This document shows, in pieces, positions 880 through 40,829 of a stretch of DNA of 40,829 bases. Positions within the stretch are counted from its first letter, which is position 1. Each line of letters begins with the position of its first letter. Position numbers and translations under genes: made by a program. Source of the stretch: Escherichia phage P483; sequence record NC_028822.1. The stretch is one strand, 5' to 3'. Below the pieces are notes generated by a model, which was not told where the DNA came from, ran no database searches, and was given only the letters and a program-made list of their open reading frames with translations.

Positions 880-2904
880 TTATTGGTTTTGAACTAAGAT
901 TCGCGTAGGGACTGAACGGTTGTCTTGGTCGTTACGGAAAGTTCGCCCGTTGTTAGAGATTGTAAAGGTCAACCAGCCGCCCATAGACGAGATATAGTAA
1001 GCCCCATTATCCCCAATCTGAACAGGGTTCCAGCGACCGTTGGTTTGAATCCAGATGGTTCTCCATCGGACATCCTGTGAGAGACCTACGGAAACACCGC
1101 CACCAGCAGAGCCTTTCCAGACCTCAGCCCACCCAGCGTTCTTGCGGACATAGCGACCATCGCCTTGGGCTTGTGTCAATCGACCATTCACTAGGTTGTT
1201 CGTCTCGCTCTTGTTGTAGGCATGTTCGCCAAGGCGTTTGTTTACCCAAGCGTCGATATAAGACCCATACTTCTTGATGTATAAGTTACCATCAGGCGGG
1301 ATATACCACCCCTTATTACTAGATAGCAGTCCATCAATCGTCATGGTCAGTGTGTGGTCATGACCCCCGTCTCCCTTAAGTTGGATGATACCCTCATGAA
1401 AGTTGTTGCTACCTTTCGATACCATGCCAATAGAGAATGCCGCCGGATAACCATTAGAGCGTCTACCATATTGTTTAATCATAGGGTAATACACGTTGCC
1501 ATCCTGATTTCCGGGGAGGCTTTGCGAGTAAGGGGCATTGTTATTCAACTGGCTTGCAAACCCTCCTGACCCAAAAGTTGACTCAGTGTAGAATCTCTCG
1601 TCAGCCCTAATATACTTAGAGACTCGAAGATACCCATCCATAGAGACGTTCTGGTAGAATCGAGAGTCATGGTGAGCGTGGAATCCCCCATAGAAGTCAT
1701 GACGACCGTGCCCATTGGAGCGACCATCAGGCCACGTAGAAGGGTCTGTATTTCCAAACACATAGAAGTCCATGCGTTTTGTACCAGCCTGAATCCACTG
1801 TTCCCATACGGTATCCTTAGCGCCCTGTCCACGCCACTGATTCCATACTAAATCAACTGGTTGTGTGTCATCGCCTCTAGCATCATTGTGGAGCGTTAAA
1901 ACACTAGAGCCTACCTTGCCTTTAAAGTAAACATCACTATCCTCAACCCTGTCAATGGCCTCTGCAAGTGCATTCATGCTGCCTAACTTGTCGGCCTCAG
2001 TCTTAGCACGGTCAGCTTCACTCTTAGAGCGGTTAGCCTCAGTGTTAGCACGGTCTGCATGTCCTTTAGCGGTCTCAACATGTGCAGCAGCCTTGGCAAC
2101 CTCAGCAGCAGCTTTAGTCACTTCTCCGGCAGCACGATTGGCCTCATCACGGGCACGATTGGCCTCAGAGTTGGAACGGTCAGCTTGCTTCTTGGCCTCA
2201 GCGACACTTGCGGTCATACTATCAGCATAACCTTTAGCTCGGTTGGCCTCAGAGTTGGAACGGTCAGCTTGCTTCTTGGACTCAACTGCTTGTTGCGTTG
2301 AGACACCTGCCTGTTGCGTTGAGCGGTCAGCTTCACGTTTAGCACGGTCAGCTTCATCACGTGAGCGGTTAGCTTCCTTGTTAGAACGGTTAGCATGTTC
2401 ATCAGCTTTGGTCACAGCGTTCCAAGCAGACGACTCGCGCTCTTTTACTTGCTTCAGTGGGACAGCATCATAGTCACCAGTAGCGAACGCTAGGTTCACA
2501 ATCTTACGACCACGGGCATCCAAGTGACCATCATTGTTGACACCAATGGTATCCGCAGTTAGGTCTCGTGCCTCTTCAGCTACGTGCAGCGTCTGAATCT
2601 GTGAGATGTTAAGGTCATACGCACGAAGGATTGAGCCATCAGCAAAGTCAACCAGACGGTCGGTTGCAGAAGTGAATCTACGAATCTCAATCATCTGATA
2701 ACCATCGGCAGCAGTCCACGAACGGGAGGTTGTGATTTGGGTCTTAGTGGTAAAGCGATAGTCCTGATTAAGAACCAACTCTTTACGGTCTTTCCCGATG
2801 AGTGTCACTTGGACGAACTTACGTGCTAAATACTCAAAGGTAATCGTGAAGTTCACGGCACCGTTCAGCGGGTAAGTACGTACAGTGGAAATTTTGTTAG
2901 CCAT
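880..2904 (-). CDS. 17: Tail fiber protein (T7 gp17-like) with an expanded repetitive coiled-coil shaft
   Basis: Start moved to internal ATG at 2904 (MANKISTVRTYPLNG..., SD AGGAGG upstream); N-terminal 150 aa and C-terminal tip resemble T7 gp17 as recalled; 674 aa versus 553 in T7. Confidence 0.9.
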   Translation of the reverse strand: MANKISTVRTYPLNGAVNFTITFEYLARKFVQVTLIGKDRKELVLNQDYRFTTKTQITTSRSWTAADGYQMIEIRRFTSATDRLVDFADGSILRAYDLNISQIQTLHVAEEARDLTADTIGVNNDGHLDARGRKIVNLAFATGDYDAVPLKQVKERESSAWNAVTKADEHANRSNKEANRSRDEADRAKREADRSTQQAGVSTQQAVESKKQADRSNSEANRAKGYADSMTASVAEAKKQADRSNSEANRARDEANRAAGEVTKAAAEVAKAAAHVETAKGHADRANTEANRSKSEADRAKTEADKLGSMNALAEAIDRVEDSDVYFKGKVGSSVLTLHNDARGDDTQPVDLVWNQWRGQGAKDTVWEQWIQAGTKRMDFYVFGNTDPSTWPDGRSNGHGRHDFYGGFHAHHDSRFYQNVSMDGYLRVSKYIRADERFYTESTFGSGGFASQLNNNAPYSQSLPGNQDGNVYYPMIKQYGRRSNGYPAAFSIGMVSKGSNNFHEGIIQLKGDGGHDHTLTMTIDGLLSSNKGWYIPPDGNLYIKKYGSYIDAWVNKRLGEHAYNKSETNNLVNGRLTQAQGDGRYVRKNAGWAEVWKGSAGGGVSVGLSQDVRWRTIWIQTNGRWNPVQIGDNGAYYISSMGGWLTFTISNNGRTFRNDQDNRSVPTRILVQNQ
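2161..2279 (-). repeat. Two perfect 35-bp direct repeats inside the tail-fiber shaft coding region
   Basis: ggcctcagagttggaacggtcagcttgcttcttgg at 2161-2195 and 2245-2279; encodes KKQADRSNSEANRA twice. Confidence 0.85.
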
Positions 2905-2953
2905 CTGTAGCCTCCTTTCGGTTAGGTATAATAGGAGGGAAGCTGTGAGAGCC

Positions 2954-2976
2954 TTCCCCAATAGTGAGTCGTATTG
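2954..2976 (-). promoter_or_regulatory. Phage RNAP promoter phi17
   Basis: Minus strand reads CAATACGACTCACTATTGGGGAA. Confidence 0.85.
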
Positions 2977-2977
2977 T

Positions 2978-5900
2978 TTACTTCTTGTCAGCCTTAATGT
3001 GAACACCGTTGGCCTCATAGAACTTAATGAGCATCTGTTGAGAGATTGGGTCGTTAGGAATCATCTCTCGGTGAGCATTCATTAAGCCAGTCATCATCTC
3101 ACGCTCGGTCGGTTTGTTAGGAGCCGTAAGGACACCATAAGCATTTCGACCAGTAGCTAGAGCAGCACCAGCGAAGCCAAGAGCAGGAACCTGTTCACCA
3201 ATAGCGCCCATAATGGAATCACCCATGTCACGAGAAGTCACCGCCTTATTGCGTTCACGCTTGTCATCACCTTTCGGTAGAATCGTAGAGCGAACCATAA
3301 GACCTTGGTCGTAACCAGCAGCACCCATAGCGAAGTTAGCGATACTCAGAGGCGACCCAAGGTGTGAACTTCGGGAGGCCGCTGCGTAGGCAATCATCTT
3401 CGGGTCGAGAGCTTTCTTCAAGTAATCCTTCTGTTGCTCTTTAGGAAGACCAGCAGCTTTCAAGTGAGCCTGTGCCACGTAGTAGGAACCGGCAAGACCA
3501 CCAGAGATAGCATAGGTCAGAGCCATGTCCATAGCGCGATGGTTCTTAAAGGCTTCGTTGCCAGAGCGGATAAACTTAGAGTTCATCGACTTGATGACAA
3601 ACGATTTAAACTGAAGGACTAACTTAGCGGTAGCACCAAACGCATGGGAATCCTGTAAGGAAACCTTATGAGGTCTGAGCATCGTTTCATCAGCAACCTT
3701 ATCAGCTAAACGCCATAAGTCCATAGCACGAGGGTCATTAGCCAGAGCCTTCTTATCCTTGAAGGTGAACTTACCATCTTCACCACGAGTCACGTTCTCC
3801 CGGATGAGAGACTGAATGCCTTCCCACTGTTCCTTAGAGATACTCGCCGACTTCAGCATGTCACCTTTAATCCACTTGTTGGCACCCTTACCAGTGATAG
3901 CATGAGTTACCACATCGCCCATAACACCCTGACGGGCCATGTCCAGAAGGTAGTTTGACGTACCATTGAGGAACTTGGTTAGAGGTGAGCGAGCAGCCAG
4001 TTCTTGAGTTGTGTGCTTAATGGTCCCAACAACCTTTGCTGCAACATCAGGTGTATCAGTTGACTCACGGAGTCGCTGAATGATGTCTTGACGAGTCGGT
4101 CGGATTAACTGGTCGAACTCTTTACCGAACACCATAGAGTGGAGTTCTTTGAGTTCCTTACCGGAGACTGGCTTGTTGCGGAACGCTAAGTCACGCAGTG
4201 CCGGAATGCCATGAAGCATCGCACGGATATTACCCTTCGCCAACATACCGGAGATTTCAGTTAGGTTCTGCAAGCCCATGTATGCGTTCTTCGTAAAGAA
4301 GGACATATCGGACAGAGCACGAACCATAGTGTCACCTACAGTATCCTGATTACGTCGAGCACGACCAGTGAGAATCTTAACGGTATCCTTAAGTGCTTCC
4401 ACTTCACCTTTCATTGTGCCTTTACCTTCAGACTTCTTATCAAGAGCCATGATAGCGTCCTTGAGTTCAGCAGTAGTCTTGCCTGTACCTCCCATGATAG
4501 CAATATCACCATCAACACGGCGGTCATATGCTGGCATCACATGCTTCATATCGAAGTCACGGAGGTCATTCACAGAGAACTGTTGTCCATTCGGTAGAGT
4601 GACTGGCATGTCAGAATCAAACAGGTTACGGGCTTCAAGGAATGAGTTGTTCTCAATCCCAACGAGACCCTCAATGTTATCGTCAATGACACTTGAAGAG
4701 TTGAACTCATCGGTCTTCGCAATACCATAAGCCTTGTCCATAGCGTACTTCTCAGCCATCTGACTAAGCATAGCCTCTTCGTCTACCTTTGGTTCCACCT
4801 TCTCGTCTGTGCCAAACTTCTGGCGCTCTGAAGGTTTAGCCGGAGCAGCTTGTGCACCTTTGGCAGCAGAGGCGGCTTCTTCAGCTTCGGCGGTGGCTCT
4901 GGTGATTCTGTCTTGGACCTTAGTAGCCTGTCCTTTCATGTATTCGAGACGCTCTGTGTTAACACGGACGTGAGACTTCTGGGTCTCAATCATCTGCTTC
5001 CGGCTCTCAATCTTAACAGGAATGGTTTTGCTATTAGGTTTAGCAGCTAGTTTTTCTTCCAACTCCTTCAGCTTAGCCTCATGCGAAGCCAGTCTGTCCT
5101 TGGAGTTCTGGAGTTTCCTTTCACGGTCCGCAACTCGCTTCTCAGCGTTGGTCAGGACGTCTTTTAGTTCTGCTACCTTATCACTTGCCTGTGTAGCTGC
5201 ATCGTCCAGTTTCATCTGGTAACTGGCTGTGTCGACAGACTCTTGGCTTCTGAGGAAGTTCTCAGTGTCAGCCGCAAGTTTGGCATCAGCTTCAGCTTTG
5301 GAGAAAACGTCACTGTTAACCTGTTTAAGGTATTCATCAACACGGGCCTTAACTTCAGGACGTGAATGATAGGATGTCATCCAGCTTGCAGCAATCGCTT
5401 CCTGTAAACCATCAGAACCCCCAAGAGCCTGTGAGTACAACTGCTTGGCTTCCCGTGAGTACACATGAGGAACGTAAGTCCCTTTGTGACGACTGTTAGG
5501 GAAGATAGAGTTGGCCTTGTTACCGAACATCGACGGGTTCTCCATCATCTCACGCTTGAGGTCAAAGTGTTCCTTCATGATGTCCATCACCTTACGTTCT
5601 GCCTTTGTCAAGTTGGCCTGAAGTTCAGGTCTCTCGATAGCCACAGCAGCACGACGATAGATTTCTTGACGGGCACCTTGAGCACCACTCTTGAACATAC
5701 CCACAGACCACTCAGGGTCAGCCATCGCTTCCTTCATTGCACCATAGAGGTCATTGTAGGTTCGCTGGTTGTTACTGTGTAGGCGCTCTTTGATGTCTGA
5801 GGCGGTAGCCCCAAACTTACCATGTGAGCCAGACTCCATACCTGTAGGTGAGCGCACTAAGTCCTTAGCTAGTCCACGGATTTCAGCGTGTTCAGAACGT

Positions 5901-7450
5901 AGAGTTCTCAAGCCGATTTCACTCAGGCCACGCATAGGCAATCCCCAAGCAGCACGTTCAGGGTCTACCTCGGCAAACTCTCTGGCTGTCATAGGGTTCG
6001 CTAGGTTAGTATCACTAATAATGGAACCATCACGCAGCACTACAGCACCCGGTTCAGTTTCCAGTGGTGCATACTCAACGCCGTTGTGCTGTGAGAACAC
6101 TCGGTCTTCACTAGGAGGCATACGGCTTGCGTCATAACCACCAGTGTTACGTGCAGTCTCACGAGCCTCAAAGCGCATCTGTGCAGCAGCAAAGGGGTTC
6201 TCAATCTGTTCAGCACCAGACTTACGGAGACCAGCGGCAACACCATCTGCCACAGCAGTCAGTCCACCAGCCAGTAACATCCCAGCAAGGGCAGCTTCAG
6301 CATAGTGTGCATTGCCACCTGCAACCGATGTACGCAGACCTTCAGAGGCAACGTTAAGTGCACCAGCTTGAGCACCCACCATCAATGCCTTGTTCACCAG
6401 TTTGAATCCCTTGGCTGTACTCCCTGCGAGTGGGACGTAGGTCAACGGGTCCACACCAGCACCAATCAGGCCAGCAGACAGCTTGGCACCAAGTCCAGCA
6501 TCAGCAGCCTTAGCATCAGCCTCGAAGTTCTCGTTAGCCATTTTGATTAGCTCGTCAAGGTTCTCAGCGGAACCACCGAGTACAACGTTCATGTACGCAG
6601 GGTTCTTTACTTCAGTCCGAATCTTCTCCAGTTCTTCAGGCGACCATATGTGGCTATTAAACCGTGTCGGTTGAAGTACATCAGTGAGCACATCAAAACC
6701 ATTGTCACGCTTACCAGCACGGAAGGCAACACCCAAGGTTGAGTTGGAGAGTTCTGCTTCAGCAGCACTACCGAATCCGAAGAAGGTTGAACGCTCATTG
6801 GCTTCGTCAAGAGTTGTTCCTTTTGCTTCCCAATAGTCTTTACCGAACGGCTGATTGGGAGCGGCCTGTTCTTTACCTTGAAAGGACATTGAGTGAGACT
6901 CAGGGAGTTCTGTAGTTACCTTTCCTTTCTTCCCGATACCACTCATAGCAGCATCGAACGGAATCCCTTTACCCTTTGGGGTGATACCACCGAAGGACTC
7001 AATGTCACCACTCTTAGGAGACTTAGCGACATCCAGAAGTGAGCGAAGATAGTTACGCCCTTCGTCACCGATACCAGCAAAGTTACCGGAGTCATAGGCT
7101 TCCAATTGAGGTTTACCAGTACGTCCCTCGCCTTGGTTGTACGCTAGTGCAGCTTTAAGTTCATCCCCATTGTATTTCTTAACGAGGTCTGCAAGGTAAC
7201 GAGCACCTGCATCGATTGACTTAGCCGGGTCGTTGAAGTCCTCATCAGACTGTAGGCCGTAAGCCTGACCAGTTGCCTTAGTGAACTGCATGACACCTCG
7301 TGGCCCTGTTGGTGATTGGGCCGTAGGTTTGAATCGGGACTCTACCCAACCGACCTTCCGAAGAAGGCCATAGGAGACTCCATGTGTGTCAGCAGCTTGT
7401 TGAAATAACGCATCATATTCATGCGGTTCGTTCGGGTTATACTTATCCAC
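2978..7450 (-). CDS. 16: Internal virion protein D (T7 gp16-like) with N-terminal lytic transglycosylase domain
   Basis: 1490 aa; GTG start with SD TAGGAGGT; N-terminus MDKYNPNEP...MQFTKAT and much of the body align with T7 gp16 as recalled; about 180 extra residues inserted. Confidence 0.9.
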   Translation of the reverse strand: MDKYNPNEPHEYDALFQQAADTHGVSYGLLRKVGWVESRFKPTAQSPTGPRGVMQFTKATGQAYGLQSDEDFNDPAKSIDAGARYLADLVKKYNGDELKAALAYNQGEGRTGKPQLEAYDSGNFAGIGDEGRNYLRSLLDVAKSPKSGDIESFGGITPKGKGIPFDAAMSGIGKKGKVTTELPESHSMSFQGKEQAAPNQPFGKDYWEAKGTTLDEANERSTFFGFGSAAEAELSNSTLGVAFRAGKRDNGFDVLTDVLQPTRFNSHIWSPEELEKIRTEVKNPAYMNVVLGGSAENLDELIKMANENFEADAKAADAGLGAKLSAGLIGAGVDPLTYVPLAGSTAKGFKLVNKALMVGAQAGALNVASEGLRTSVAGGNAHYAEAALAGMLLAGGLTAVADGVAAGLRKSGAEQIENPFAAAQMRFEARETARNTGGYDASRMPPSEDRVFSQHNGVEYAPLETEPGAVVLRDGSIISDTNLANPMTAREFAEVDPERAAWGLPMRGLSEIGLRTLRSEHAEIRGLAKDLVRSPTGMESGSHGKFGATASDIKERLHSNNQRTYNDLYGAMKEAMADPEWSVGMFKSGAQGARQEIYRRAAVAIERPELQANLTKAERKVMDIMKEHFDLKREMMENPSMFGNKANSIFPNSRHKGTYVPHVYSREAKQLYSQALGGSDGLQEAIAASWMTSYHSRPEVKARVDEYLKQVNSDVFSKAEADAKLAADTENFLRSQESVDTASYQMKLDDAATQASDKVAELKDVLTNAEKRVADRERKLQNSKDRLASHEAKLKELEEKLAAKPNSKTIPVKIESRKQMIETQKSHVRVNTERLEYMKGQATKVQDRITRATAEAEEAASAAKGAQAAPAKPSERQKFGTDEKVEPKVDEEAMLSQMAEKYAMDKAYGIAKTDEFNSSSVIDDNIEGLVGIENNSFLEARNLFDSDMPVTLPNGQQFSVNDLRDFDMKHVMPAYDRRVDGDIAIMGGTGKTTAELKDAIMALDKKSEGKGTMKGEVEALKDTVKILTGRARRNQDTVGDTMVRALSDMSFFTKNAYMGLQNLTEISGMLAKGNIRAMLHGIPALRDLAFRNKPVSGKELKELHSMVFGKEFDQLIRPTRQDIIQRLRESTDTPDVAAKVVGTIKHTTQELAARSPLTKFLNGTSNYLLDMARQGVMGDVVTHAITGKGANKWIKGDMLKSASISKEQWEGIQSLIRENVTRGEDGKFTFKDKKALANDPRAMDLWRLADKVADETMLRPHKVSLQDSHAFGATAKLVLQFKSFVIKSMNSKFIRSGNEAFKNHRAMDMALTYAISGGLAGSYYVAQAHLKAAGLPKEQQKDYLKKALDPKMIAYAAASRSSHLGSPLSIANFAMGAAGYDQGLMVRSTILPKGDDKRERNKAVTSRDMGDSIMGAIGEQVPALGFAGAALATGRNAYGVLTAPNKPTEREMMTGLMNAHREMIPNDPISQQMLIKFYEANGVHIKADKK

Positions 7451-7473: not shown

Positions 7474-9753
7474 TTAGTCTTTACCAGTCAGCGTATCCAG
7501 AATACCTTTGCCACTCACGCTATCGTACATGCTGCCAGAGCGCTTAGGCTTCTTAGCTTCACGTTCACGCTTGCGGTTCATAGCTCGTGTATGTATGGTT
7601 CGCTTGTTGGCATCTTTGAGTGCCTTGTTACGGGCTTCCTCGTCCAGCTTCGCTTGGTTCTCTTGGTACATCTTAGAGAGCAACTTCTTGTCATACCGAA
7701 TGTTAATCTGTCCGGTTGTATCCATCAGGTAGATAGAGTCACCACGCTCAAACACAGTGAGTTGCTTGTTAGTCACCCAAGGGTTAGTCTCAGCGAGTTT
7801 CTTAGCGGCTGTGTCGATAATGTCCTTACCTTGTTTCCAAGAGTCCGGGTCATCCGTCACACGCAAAGAGTTTATCGTTAAGACACCAATGGTATCACCA
7901 TCAACATCACCAGCAGTTAGAGTTGTTGTGTTCTCTTTGAGATACTTATCGACCTGTTGCATCGCCATATCAGCATTGCCAGTACGGTACTTCACAGAGT
8001 CATAAATCTTACGAGCACCAGCGTCCAAGGTTGCTGGCATACGGGACAGTTCGGGAGACTCGGAGTTGTTCTTCAGCGAAGCCCAAGCCTTGTCATCCTC
8101 GTACTGCATCTCTTTGGTAAGAGACTGTCGAGCCTTATCTGCATCCAGCAGGATTTGCGGGTCAATCCCTTGGTTGTCCATCATGTCCATAGTGAGGAAC
8201 ATCTCGGCCTTATCAGGATACAGCGCAGCGAACAACTCAGGGTCAGCATTACGAACACGGCGTAGGGCATTAAGTGCCACTCCACCATCTTCGGGCATCT
8301 TCCCGTTAATCACAGCGGATGTCCATTCCTTCTCAGCGTCACCAATCAGTTCACCAACCGCAGTACGGAAGGCACCCTTCTCGGAGTCAGCCTTTAGGTA
8401 GTCCAACTTCATGCGGTCTTTCTGTTCATCAGGGATGTTCATAGCATCAATGTCAGCCAGCTTCTTGTTAGCGTAGTTAACCATATCACTATGAGTAAAC
8501 TCACCAGTGTTCTCGTTGGTTGGCATATCGCCATACGCAGTAGACACGTACTGACCATTGAGTCGCTTCTGGAACTGTGCGTCAATGACGTTCATCTTGT
8601 TCATGGACTTCTGTTGCTTATCCATTTCCTTGGCTAACTCAGCGGTCTCTCGCTTCATGCGGTCCTGCATCTGCGTCTGTGCGTTGATTAGAGTCTGACG
8701 TTCAGGTGTCATCTCTTCGCCCGGTTGCAGTGTATCCAGTTCTGCCTTGATAGACTGAAGCTGTTCCCAGCCAGTATTGACGTTCTCTTGGTTCAACGCT
8801 GAGTTCACATTAAGTTGGAACGCCTCTGTCTTCTTGGCATTCAACTGGAACTCATTATGTTGAGCCTTGACCATCAAGTTGTTCCACTGTTCGGCACCCA
8901 TCAGTTCCTTGAAGGTAGTCTCCTTGCCGTGAAGTTTGACCTTACGGTTCTCAATTTGTTGGAGGAACTGACCACCACCCTCACGGTTAACCACGTCAGA
9001 GAGACCTTGGCTAATCATGGTGAACGCTTGGTCATCACTAGGGATACTCCCTGTCGTCAATCCAGCGGTGAAGTAGTTCTCAAAGAACTCACCAGCATAT
9101 GGGGAACGTAGGGTTTCCGGGTCGTTCAACACAGAGTTCAACTCTACGCGACTGTTGATGACAGCACCCTTCTTAGCTTGGTCACTCAGGAAGTTATCGT
9201 GAGCACCATAGAGGGCGATGTTACGTTCAGTGATGTCGGAGTTGAAACCTTTCTGATAGTGCTCATCAGTCTCGTCGATGCCGAACTGTTCCGCATAGTT
9301 CTTAGCGGCTTCTTGTAGGCGATTGTGACGGAACTCTTCCAACTCTTGACGAGTACGGAACTCACCGTTCTTCACCTTCTGTGCCACTTCATCATCTACG
9401 AGATACGCAGCGTTACGACCAGTCTTAATCTTAAGTGCTTCCATCGCATATGGGTCATCCTGATATAACAGTGTCCCATTCTTAATGGCCTCTCGACGTT
9501 GCTCAGGAGTCAGCTTACGAATAATCTCGTTAGAGCGTTCGTCTGCCTTGTCCTTCTGGTGCTGGTCATACTTCATATAGGCATCCGCACCCATCTCAGC
9601 AAGTTTACCCACAGTCCCAATCAGTGCGGACTTCTTGGCATACTTAGGGTCTTCATAGACTGTTGCGGCCTTAACTTCCATACGACCAGTGCCGCGCAGA
9701 CGACTAGCAGCCGGAGAGTTCATGCTACCCAATGCTTGCGCTAACTTACTCAT
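7474..9753 (-). CDS. 15: Internal virion protein C (T7 gp15-like)
   Basis: 759 aa (T7 gp15 is 747 aa); position between gp14 and gp16. Confidence 0.85.
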   Translation of the reverse strand: MSKLAQALGSMNSPAASRLRGTGRMEVKAATVYEDPKYAKKSALIGTVGKLAEMGADAYMKYDQHQKDKADERSNEIIRKLTPEQRREAIKNGTLLYQDDPYAMEALKIKTGRNAAYLVDDEVAQKVKNGEFRTRQELEEFRHNRLQEAAKNYAEQFGIDETDEHYQKGFNSDITERNIALYGAHDNFLSDQAKKGAVINSRVELNSVLNDPETLRSPYAGEFFENYFTAGLTTGSIPSDDQAFTMISQGLSDVVNREGGGQFLQQIENRKVKLHGKETTFKELMGAEQWNNLMVKAQHNEFQLNAKKTEAFQLNVNSALNQENVNTGWEQLQSIKAELDTLQPGEEMTPERQTLINAQTQMQDRMKRETAELAKEMDKQQKSMNKMNVIDAQFQKRLNGQYVSTAYGDMPTNENTGEFTHSDMVNYANKKLADIDAMNIPDEQKDRMKLDYLKADSEKGAFRTAVGELIGDAEKEWTSAVINGKMPEDGGVALNALRRVRNADPELFAALYPDKAEMFLTMDMMDNQGIDPQILLDADKARQSLTKEMQYEDDKAWASLKNNSESPELSRMPATLDAGARKIYDSVKYRTGNADMAMQQVDKYLKENTTTLTAGDVDGDTIGVLTINSLRVTDDPDSWKQGKDIIDTAAKKLAETNPWVTNKQLTVFERGDSIYLMDTTGQINIRYDKKLLSKMYQENQAKLDEEARNKALKDANKRTIHTRAMNRKREREAKKPKRSGSMYDSVSGKGILDTLTGKD

Positions 9754-9767
9754 AAACCGTACCTCCT

Positions 9768-10373
9768 TTATTTGCCTTGGCCTGTTGACTTAGCATCCGA
9801 AGCCTTAACCTTAGCGGTAGCCTTCTTAGCCAGCTTGCCCTCGAAGAGTCCACCAGCGGTTGCGATGCCAGCCAGCTTACCCATGCCCAAACCTAATGGG
9901 TCGATGATTTGCTCTAAACGGCCTTTGAGTTTTGGCTCGGACTTGTTGATTTCTTTAATCTGACTCACGGTGTTCTCATGGTTAGCTAAACGCTTCCCTA
10001 AGATGACACTATAGTCACGTTGGTAGTTCTCAGTGAGACCTTGAGACTCTCGAAGGAAGTCACCCTCGGTAACGCGGGTTACACGTTCCATAGAGTTACC
10101 TTCAAGCATCCCTTCACCGATTGCCGCGCGGATAGTCCCCATGTTTCTCACACGGTTCATATTCGATTGGGTCATCTCTTGCACGGTGGAGTCAATGAGG
10201 TCACGAGATTCTAACTTAAGGTTAGCTTCGTTGTAGTTCATCTCCTTCAGCATCTGCATACTTTGACGACGACCTTGGTCAATCTGTGCGGCCTTTGCCT
10301 GTTCACCCTGCATACCTCCCATAATCATGGAAGCGCCTTGCATAGCGATAGGGATTGCAGCCATCCAGCACAT
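9768..10373 (-). CDS. 14: Internal virion protein B (T7 gp14-like)
   Basis: 201 aa (T7 gp14 is 196 aa); position. Confidence 0.8.
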   Translation of the reverse strand: MCWMAAIPIAMQGASMIMGGMQGEQAKAAQIDQGRRQSMQMLKEMNYNEANLKLESRDLIDSTVQEMTQSNMNRVRNMGTIRAAIGEGMLEGNSMERVTRVTEGDFLRESQGLTENYQRDYSVILGKRLANHENTVSQIKEINKSEPKLKGRLEQIIDPLGLGMGKLAGIATAGGLFEGKLAKKATAKVKASDAKSTGQGK

Positions 10374-37210: not shown

Positions 37211-37412
37211 AGATACTCAATGGTCACTTACAGATAGGGACACAGAGACACTAAGTTATCCACAGAGTTACCAACAGTCTCACCTAAAGTTATCCACACA
37301 GCCTCTAACCTAGAGTTATCCACAGAGTTATCCATAGGTTATCCACAAGTTATCCACAAGTTATCTACAGGGTTACCCACAGGGGGGAAACCACTATGTA
37401 TGAACTATGAGA
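37190..37412 (-). repeat. Predicted terminal direct repeat with the left physical genome end at about 37412 (boundaries approximate)
   Basis: Minus strand from 37412 reads TCTCATAGTTCATACATAGTGG...CCCCCC, like the T3/T7 left end (TCTCA...) as recalled; GTGTCTCTGTGTCCCTATCTGT (37225-37250) matches the end of the T7 terminal repeat. Confidence 0.4.
37246..37381 (+). repeat. Array of eight DnaA-box-like 9-mers (five exact TTATCCACA) in the predicted terminal-repeat region
   Basis: TTATCCACA at 37246, 37290, 37316, 37339, 37350; TTATCCATA at 37328; TTATCTACA at 37361; TTACCCACA at 37373; all same orientation. Confidence 0.8.
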
Positions 37413-40424: not shown

Positions 40425-40829
40425 TTACTTCTCCTTCTTAGCTTGCATTTCAGTTATTGTATTTTGGAGCGCCTTAATCCACGCATCCCCTCTTTGAGTT
40501 ACTCCGATAAGACGCTTACTAAACTCTTCGTCAAGTTCGGCTCGACCATCAACGAGGCATCCACCATTAGCTTGGAGTTCTCGTGTGGTGGCTGATAGTT
40601 TGACGCGCAAGCGCTTACCATCGTTACGCAAATCATTAATGACCCTATCAGTGCTGCCCTCCAGCGCCGCAAGGTCTTCTTGGTATTGTCGTGAGATTTC
40701 GTTGATAGCAGCTTGTTTATCCTCAGTCGCCTTAACTTTCTTAACGTACTCATTGTGCACCTCCTGTTCCCATTTAGTGTTAGCTTTGTCATAGCCGTGG
40801 TTATACGCAAGGGTAACACCCAAGGCAAA
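40425..40829 (-). CDS. 18.5: i-spanin Rz (T7 gp18.5-like), 3' part; the 5' end lies beyond the window end (equivalent to 1..265)
   Basis: Continuous with the copy at the window start; resembles T7 gp18.5 as recalled. Confidence 0.8.
   Translation of the reverse strand, partial: FALGVTLAYNHGYDKANTKWEQEVHNEYVKKVKATEDKQAAINEISRQYQEDLAALEGSTDRVINDLRNDGKRLRVKLSATTRELQANGGCLVDGRAELDEEFSKRLIGVTQRGDAWIKALQNTITEMQAKKEK
40499..40753 (-). CDS. 18.7: o-spanin Rz1 (T7 gp18.7-like), embedded in Rz in the +1 frame
   Basis: ATG 40753 with SD GGAGGTG; MSTLRKLRRLRINK...LIGSLMICVTMVSACAS (lipoprotein signal and Cys) ...SLMVEPNLT resembles T7 gp18.7 as recalled. Confidence 0.8.
   Translation of the reverse strand: MSTLRKLRRLRINKLLSTKSHDNTKKTLRRWRAALIGSLMICVTMVSACASNYQPPHENSKLMVDASLMVEPNLTKSLVSVLSE
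40604..40829. repeat. 226-bp exact duplication of window positions 1-226 (circular-permutation overlap, not a biological repeat)
   Basis: Direct comparison of window start and end. Confidence 0.95.

Follow-up and report, generated by a model that had tools for sequence, protein, structure and literature searches.

Why does an ejectosome protein of a T7-like phage carry in its middle a long coiled-coil segment that most of its close relatives lack? This question is raised by gene 16 of Escherichia phage P483 (sequence record NC_028822.1), the DNA of which we analyzed over its entire length of 40,829 nucleotides (hereafter, the window). Gene 16 (2978..7450 on the minus strand, as are all the gp16 features given below) encodes the internal virion protein gp16, which consists of 1490 amino acids (aa) and is 100% identical to the protein in the NCBI record of P483. 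Its T7 counterpart, also known as internal virion protein D, is a peptidoglycan transglycosylase and a component of the ejectosome for which structures are available (PDB 7EYB, 7K5C, 9JYY, 6YT5). We find that the additional segment is a single, optional, horizontally exchanged module, most likely a coiled-coil hairpin between two linkers, and that the loop in which it resides holds, in other phages, a predicted acetyltransferase domain. On balance, the hairpin is probably an accessory arm that is delivered with gp16 and would not be a part of the DNA channel.

The insertion as originally delineated encompasses gp16 residues 713-897 (4760..5314). An earlier note on this DNA had described it as a discrete insertion of about 185 residues between EVKARVDEYLKQ and AEKYAMDKAYG, and three independent methods concur that it is one discrete block at this site, as opposed to extra residues scattered along the protein. 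In the MAFFT alignment with the gp16 proteins of T7, Berlin and P151, all the extra residues fall after RPEVKARVDEYL and before MAEKYAMDKAYG. A phmmer comparison with the solved T7 gp16 (7eyb_I, 1827 bits) splits P483 gp16 into two stretches, residues 1-712 (T7 residues 1-717) and 887-1486. Finally, among the 121 related proteins in which the distance between the anchors RPEVKARVDE and DKAYGI was measured, this distance is 198 residues in P483 compared to 23 in the 104 insertion-free Berlinvirus-type gp16 clusters. The insertion itself is thus borne out, and only the figure of 185 was slightly high, since it included flank residues: the insertion adds a net 172 aa compared to T7 and 175 aa compared to Berlin and P151. 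The gp16 proteins of T7 and T3 (1318 aa each) and of Berlin and P151 (1315 aa each) have a short stretch where P483 has a linker-hairpin-linker module of ~175 aa. Both the GC content and the GC content at third codon positions (GC3) of the insertion resemble those of the remainder of gene 16, and its base composition shows no sign of foreign origin.

The module most likely consists of a linker, an antiparallel coiled-coil hairpin with ~60 residues per arm (~9 nm), and a second linker. AlphaFold was run on residues 673-937 as a single sequence and on residues 400-1300 with a 44-sequence alignment, and both runs predict the same two long helices, residues 741-803 (5042..5230) and 809-865 (4856..5026), connected by a 5-residue turn; for both helices, the predicted local distance difference test score (pLDDT) is mostly above 90. 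Hydrophobic periodicity in these helices peaks at 3.5 residues, a peak reached by 0.0002 of the shuffles for helix 1 and by 0.046 for helix 2, so that the heptad-like, coiled-coil character noted earlier is corroborated by both the periodicity and the predicted helices. The heptad 'a' positions of helix 1 are occupied by Q, A, V, L, V, L, L, L and L, and several of the 'd' positions are polar (R, S, H, Q, N). The turn at the tip of the hairpin, residues 804-808 (KPNSK; 5027..5041), at which the helix breaks in both models, lies inside a basic segment (AAKPNSKTIPVKIESRK) and is nearly invariant among 31 unique module sequences. A charge count along the sequence assigns a net basic character (about +8) to the distal half of the hairpin and an acidic one to its base. 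The left linker, residues ~710-740 (KQVNSDVFSKAEADAKLAADTENFLRSQESVD; 5231..5323), as delineated by alignments, contains an ENFLR motif, and its structure is uncertain: the pLDDT is 54-73 in the single-sequence model, yet the linker is helical in the alignment-based model, which carries helix 1 backwards through it. The right linker, residues 866-890 (AQAAPAKPSERQKFGTDEKVEPKVD; 4781..4855), mapped from the alignment of the DNA junctions, is predicted to be disordered (pLDDT <50). Two types of linkers are apparent among the module carriers in the alignment.

When the hairpin model was compared to the PDB with Foldseek, the best matches were helical hairpins such as YscO, AhlC and colicin E3/E9, and there was no match at E <=0.001. 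YscO/FliJ of type III secretion, the receptor-binding hairpin of colicin E3/E9, EnvC and the arms of SMC proteins are two-helix rods of similar length but show no sequence relationship to the P483 hairpin. The fold is generic, and therefore no function can be derived from the structural matches.

The module is rare. A tblastn search of 50,697 phage records detected the hairpin in 18, each time within gp16. A census query made by joining the 80 residues on each side of the insertion site matched 1266 phage records, so that the prevalence of the hairpin among the records that hold this part of gp16 is 18 of ~1266, or 1.4%. In an evenly spread sample of 60 such records, three contained this insertion and 57 were short-looped, with a loop of ~15-22 aa in the sampled rows that span the whole census query; together with the 1318-aa T3 protein, this sample indicates that T3-type gp16 is not normally as long as the P483 protein. 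Among the 120 closest gp16 protein clusters, 104 lack the module even though they are 96-99% identical to the query over the half that aligns, and in P151 gp16 the module is absent between flanks that are both 98% identical to those of P483. The metagenomic gp16 variants P0132 (1369 aa) and P0137 (1370 aa) have the hairpin cleanly removed with both linkers kept (...SSVEAAS/AAKRQK..., with the slash at the junction), and two others, P0014 (1324 aa) and P0016 (1347 aa), retain only linker remnants; these four are natural scars that document repeated loss. The module is optional and dispensable for the core function of gp16: because backbones with 98% identity lack it and natural hairpin-deleted variants exist, the channel works without the insertion.

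Apart from P483, the module is carried by Shigella phage A7, Escherichia phages Carena, JacobBurckhardt (Bas65), ST31, CY1, ZH4 and NC-A, Enterobacter phage PZJ0206, Yersinia phage vB_Yep_9, Kosakonia phage Kc166A and Klebsiella phage phi1_146017. The gp16 proteins of the carriers have the same hairpin at the same site, but the linker types vary and, outside Berlinvirus, the similarity of the backbones is far lower than that of the module: at the protein level, identity is 82-96% in the 114-residue core compared to just 45-66% in the gp16 backbones (Teseptimavirus Yep_9 and Bas65; Kayfunavirus ST31, CY1, Kc166A and Bas105; and one Klebsiella phage). The exchanged core tract, residues ~740-859 (4874..5233), stands out in sliding nucleotide identity and at fourfold-degenerate sites. 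In 10-codon windows up to residue 849, its nucleotide identity to other genera is 0.87-1.00, compared to 0.2-0.7 on both sides. With the most diverged modules, those of Kc166A and Bas105, excluded, the cross-genus nucleotide identity is 0.91-0.97 in the core and 0.53-0.66 in the flanks, and the differences at fourfold-degenerate sites amount to 0.02-0.27 and 0.51-0.68, respectively. The hairpin core has moved horizontally between the phage genera Berlinvirus, Teseptimavirus and Kayfunavirus.

The module is under purifying selection and is kept intact. In comparison with Bas105 and Kc166A, the ratio of nonsynonymous to synonymous divergence (dN/dS) of the module is 0.07-0.11 at a dS of about 0.9-1.4; by part, the values are 0.04-0.07 for the tip half (residues 771-835), 0.06-0.21 for the basal half and 0.04-0.18 for the gp16 backbone. 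Across the 31 unique module sequences, there is hardly any variation at residues 747-835, the variable positions being concentrated at the base.

Searches for relatives of the hairpin outside gp16 came back essentially empty. An exhaustive HMMER search of 1.84 billion representative proteins matched only P0001, a gp16 fragment, and P0122; the latter was rejected as a homologue, being a repetitive, low-complexity coiled coil with 40% identity over 53 aa. A word-indexed search with the insertion alone retrieved only the P0001 fragment and is uninformative on the origin of the module. Pfam and PHROGs gave only weak coiled-coil noise for the hairpin (E >=0.0016), and a scan of IMG/VR yielded three loci, all from the already identified isolates NC-A, A7 and ST31. 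We also considered, and rejected, an intein or homing-endonuclease element, given that the insertion contains no splicing or nuclease motif and no Pfam or PHROG domain. In other frames, only two open reading frames (ORFs) of at least 60 aa overlap the insertion, each of 66 aa and on the reverse strand.

The insertion site is shared with a second, unrelated module, which was detected by alignment in the gp16 proteins of phages pO103 and PP74; the gp16 of Shigella phage A7 (1644 aa) and the metagenomic protein P0009 (1640 aa) contain the two modules in tandem. The second module (A7/pO103) is a predicted GNAT acetyltransferase domain, with a match to Pfam PF00583 (23.8 bits, curated cut-off 20.7) and an RRKGIA motif; it is located at L001:3138-3566 in A7 gp16 and is found also in pO103 (L006) and PP74. 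The GNAT module is present in 14 phage records and lies within gp16 wherever the match is annotated. The GNAT-cassette gp16 proteins come from Escherichia phage pO103, Pectobacterium phages PP74 and LET1, Yersinia phage WX2, Klebsiella phages P7246, FOPMU1 and VAC71, and Enterobacter phage EcpYZU01. In the aligned proteins of pO103, PP74 and A7, the GNAT cassette resembles the hairpin in its site, in the related ENFLR and PAKPSERQKF-type linkers and in its equally patchy distribution, but its cargo is a globular enzyme domain rather than a coiled coil. P483 itself is free of GNAT except for an apparent junction scar, and A7 gp16 differs from that of P483 in having the extra GNAT cassette after the hairpin.

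The linkers appear to record some of the history of this site. In several phages, an Ala-rich linker with the ENFLR motif precedes each cassette, and the DNA of the left linker of pO103 is nearly identical to that of the inter-module linker of A7. The right junction of P483, AAAGGTGCACAAGCTGCTCCGGCTAAACCT, corresponds to the A7 sequence minus two stretches: the first, located after CAAGCT, is the ENFLR linker segment (GAAGCTGAGAACTTCCTGAGAGGTGCTGAG), and the second is the GNAT cassette between two short CCG repeats, loss of which would leave AAP/AKPSERQKF. The matching scar in P483 is located at 4814-4861 of the window (gp16 residues 864-879, KGAQAAPAKPSERQKF). The right linker of P483 looks like the scar of a deleted GNAT domain, such that an ancestor with both the hairpin and GNAT would have lost the latter; gain of GNAT in A7, that is, the opposite direction, is a possible alternative. 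Judging from these sequence comparisons, the gp16 loop is an accordion-like hot spot at which domains come, go and are swapped in frame. The sequences involved are already public under generic gp16 names; in the papers that a literature search covered, neither the insertion nor the GNAT cassette nor the slot is mentioned, and all three appear to be undescribed. Mass spectrometry of virions has identified the 1644-aa gp16 of A7 from 111 unique peptides (PMC8427288).

The position of the loop within gp16 bears on the possible function of its occupants. In T7, the periplasmic tunnel is built from gp15 and gp16 residues 1-228, the putative membrane segments of gp16 comprise residues 243-410 and 1119-1290, and residues 411-1118 (gp16-C) represent the cytoplasmic DNA-binding hub in a composite model (PMC8954989). 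The insertion falls between ~712 and 717-722 in T7 numbering and, by analogy with this model, would be in a part that is modeled as cytoplasmic, beside the clamp-control segment and outside the conduit. Residue mapping shows that the segment matching T7 gp16 G737-E761 (4652..4726) begins 20 residues after the insertion with G737, the glycine of the DKAYGI anchor, and that G737, I754 and E761 are all conserved in P483, as G909, I926 and E933. The T7 gp16 mutations G737D, I754T and E761K permit transcription-independent genome entry (PMC8954989). The literature on gp16 structure yielded no residue-level description of the region of the insertion.

Taken together, the hairpin topology, the linkers, the dispensability of the module, the transfer of a ~360-nt tract, the constraint on the tip and the enzymatic co-occupant of the slot argue for an autonomous accessory domain. 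The earlier note had suggested that the insertion could either change the length of the channel or add a function. The former is not supported, given the predicted hairpin topology, the location in gp16-C and the existence of working insertion-free relatives; the latter is the better reading and gains support from the fact that other phages have an acetyltransferase domain in this slot. We propose that the hairpin would be a self-contained domain tethered by linkers in a permissive loop of gp16-C, and that this loop would act as a cassette slot, which can be empty, contain the hairpin or the GNAT domain, or contain both in tandem. The cassettes would enter and leave in frame, in several cases via short repeats in the Ala-rich linkers. 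Under this scheme, gp16 would be carried in the capsid and would pass into the host before the DNA does, and because of this the module would be in the cell before the expression of any phage gene. The tip-proximal basic half would then bind a partner, which may be a host factor, a defense component or a DNA end, and the hairpin would neither lengthen nor rebuild the channel. Cytoplasmic delivery and the binding function are both putative; nevertheless, we are inclined to think that the hairpin is a delivered accessory interaction arm, which uses its conserved basic distal half to bind a partner shared by its enterobacterial hosts or present in the entry complex.

Several considerations weigh against this proposal. 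The cytoplasmic location of gp16-C comes from a low-resolution composite model (PMC8954989), not from P483. The surface exposure of the loop is suggested by its gap tolerance and sequence variability, and the antiparallel packing of the helices by the short turn and the Foldseek matches to helical hairpins. The global fold of the 901-residue AlphaFold model (residues 400-1300) is poor, with a mean pLDDT of 61.6 and a TM-score of 0.36 to the solved T7 gp16 (9jyy), and the loop cannot be placed on that structure with its help. Many copies of the module share a recent common ancestor, which accounts for part of its strong conservation. The searches described above detected no homologue of the module beyond gp16, so that no function can be transferred to it by homology; the binding role is putative. 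Finally, the vicinity of the clamp segment and the basic tip suit a role in DNA handling equally well.

A bolder extension of the accessory-arm proposal, which we put forward only tentatively, is that the gp16 loop might be a cargo slot through which the ejectosome protein delivers interchangeable effector domains ahead of the genome, to act on host defenses or physiology prior to transcription; jointly with this, and just as tentatively, the cassettes might be shuffled between phage genera through recombination in the shared linker sequences. A defense system that acts at DNA entry has been described, and the T7 mutants that escape it carry mutations in gp15 and gp16 (PMC13128918). These escape mutants show that the ejectosome proteins are under pressure from the host; they have no link to the hairpin module.

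The main rival of an accessory interaction arm is a regulator of DNA entry, in which the hairpin would alter the grip of gp16 on the genome or its metering, via a basic, DNA-contacting arm or via recruitment of the host RNA polymerase, and the genome would be internalized at a different rate or with a different dependence on transcription. This seems rather unlikely. The equivalent of G737 lies 20 residues downstream of the insertion, and those of I754 and E761 within 45 residues, all of them conserved; T7 mutations at these positions permit transcription-independent entry, and gp16-C binds DNA (PMC8954989); the distal half of the hairpin is the basic one, as opposed to the acidic base, and the tip half is the most conserved part. 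However, the same slot accommodates a GNAT enzyme domain, which has no obvious role in a clamp, most T7-like phages, including the relatives with 98% identity, enter the cell without the module, and hairpins of the GreA and DksA type are absent from the Foldseek matches.

In a virion-internal role of the module, the gp16 tetramer would extend its hairpins from the top of the core stack into the DNA spool, where they would stabilize the core or organize the packaged DNA, with no role after ejection. The location of gp16 in the distal ring of the internal core of mature T7 (PMC11784390) is compatible with such an arrangement, as are the basic tip, which could touch DNA, and the presence of the long A7 gp16 in virions. 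We consider this role improbable, given that near-identical phages dispense with the module, that the alternative occupant of the slot is an enzyme domain, implausible as a packing element, and that transfer across differing backbones argues for independence from local core contacts.

Less probable still is a neutral or selfish passenger, that is, in-frame DNA that would spread by recombination at a tolerant loop without any benefit to the phage. The patchy distribution, the frequent loss evidenced by the scar variants, the prevalence of 1.4% and the spread across genera are all features that such an element would have. Yet the dN/dS of 0.04-0.11 at saturating synonymous divergence is as low as that of the essential backbone, the constraint is graded with a maximum at the tip, which is not what one would expect if the insertion were merely tolerated, and no nuclease, intein or other mobility function was found with Pfam or PHROG. 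A structural extension of the channel, by which the coiled coil would make the trans-envelope conduit longer or wider, for instance to match a different envelope, is highly improbable. In its favor, gp16 forms part of the channel, such conduits often contain long helices and the carrier phages infect several genera. Against it are the findings that the chain, with its 5-residue turn, most likely returns near its origin and is predicted not to lengthen the backbone path, that the insertion maps neither to the periplasmic gp16-N nor to the putative membrane segments, that the linkers appear flexible, that presence of the module varies among near-identical phages with overlapping host genera (E. 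coli, Yersinia, Enterobacter), and that a globular GNAT domain can replace the hairpin.

The genomic context agrees with the assignment of the protein. The window is a whole linear T7-like genome, Berlinvirus-like and in reverse orientation, as indicated by a perfect direct terminal repeat of 226 bp at both ends (1-226 and 40604-40829). An N-terminal SLT (lytic transglycosylase) domain spans gp16 residues 15-121 (7088..7408; Pfam PF01464, E = 2.7e-26, 91.9 bits, cut-off 21.3), and the protein is collinear with T7 gp16 over its full length, with 64-66% identity. According to PHROG matches, homologues of gp15, another internal virion protein (7474-9753), and of gp14 (9768-10373) are encoded upstream of gene 16 and the tail fiber (880-3018, minus strand) downstream of it, so that P483 shares the gp14-gp15-gp16-gp17 gene order with T7. 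The earlier identification of the protein as gp16 is confirmed by the SLT domain, the T7 gp16 matches and the position of the gene: it belongs to the T7-type gp16 family, of which it shows every testable defining feature.

Several other features of the window were observed in passing. The tail fiber ORF encodes 712 aa, compared to 553 aa for the T7 tail fiber, and contains imperfect repeats at 1990-2410 with a period of 21 nt (7 aa) and longer spacings of 42, 84 and 126 nt, which fits a repetitive, elongated shaft. As called, this ORF opens 38 codons before the homology to its family begins (the PHROG match starts at residue 39); the true start is probably near 2904, which would abolish the apparent overlap with the end of gene 16 (2904-3018). 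There are 14 phage-promoter-like sequences, the reverse complement of about AATACGACTCACTATTGGGAGA, at sites that include 2954-2979, 10818, 15259, 16250, 18860 and 37982. The copy at 2954-2979 overlaps the stop codon of gene 16, which is the position of the T7 promoter phi17; neither a search for T3-type promoters nor this 14-copy repeat family places a promoter inside the gp16 insertion. Short direct repeats cluster at 37254-37381, with AGTTATCCACA-like units, families of 45 nt and a spacing of 23-60 nt, in what is the early (left-end) part of the genome in the conventional orientation.

Although gp16 is among the best studied phage ejection proteins, its central region has been treated as a fixed structural unit. 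What we describe is not a new system but a case, open to testing, of an ejected channel protein with swappable domains and, even if the function of the hairpin turns out to be modest, a clean example of horizontal transfer at the level of a domain inside an essential virion gene. The natural variants with the module present, absent or reduced to a scar are ready-made controls and deletion designs. A tolerated, naturally variable slot marks the place where foreign domains fit into an ejected protein, which could be useful for engineering phages that bring reporters or enzymes into the cell upon injection. If either the hairpin or the GNAT domain counters host defense or tunes genome entry, it would represent a new kind of first-minute countermeasure.

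Capsid-packaged proteins that are injected together with the DNA are known in several other phages, namely, Alt and IPI* of T4, DarA/DarB of P1, the virion RNA polymerase of N4 and the cargo of crassviruses. The likeness to the case proposed here is that an activity is delivered before phage gene expression, and our observations suggest that T7-like phages may similarly pre-load accessory activities, as T4 and P1 do, but in the form of domains of a channel protein. In T4, P1, N4 and crassviruses, the injected activities reside in separate proteins or in the main body of an ejection protein, whereas in P483 the candidate cargo is a swappable loop domain within the channel former itself.

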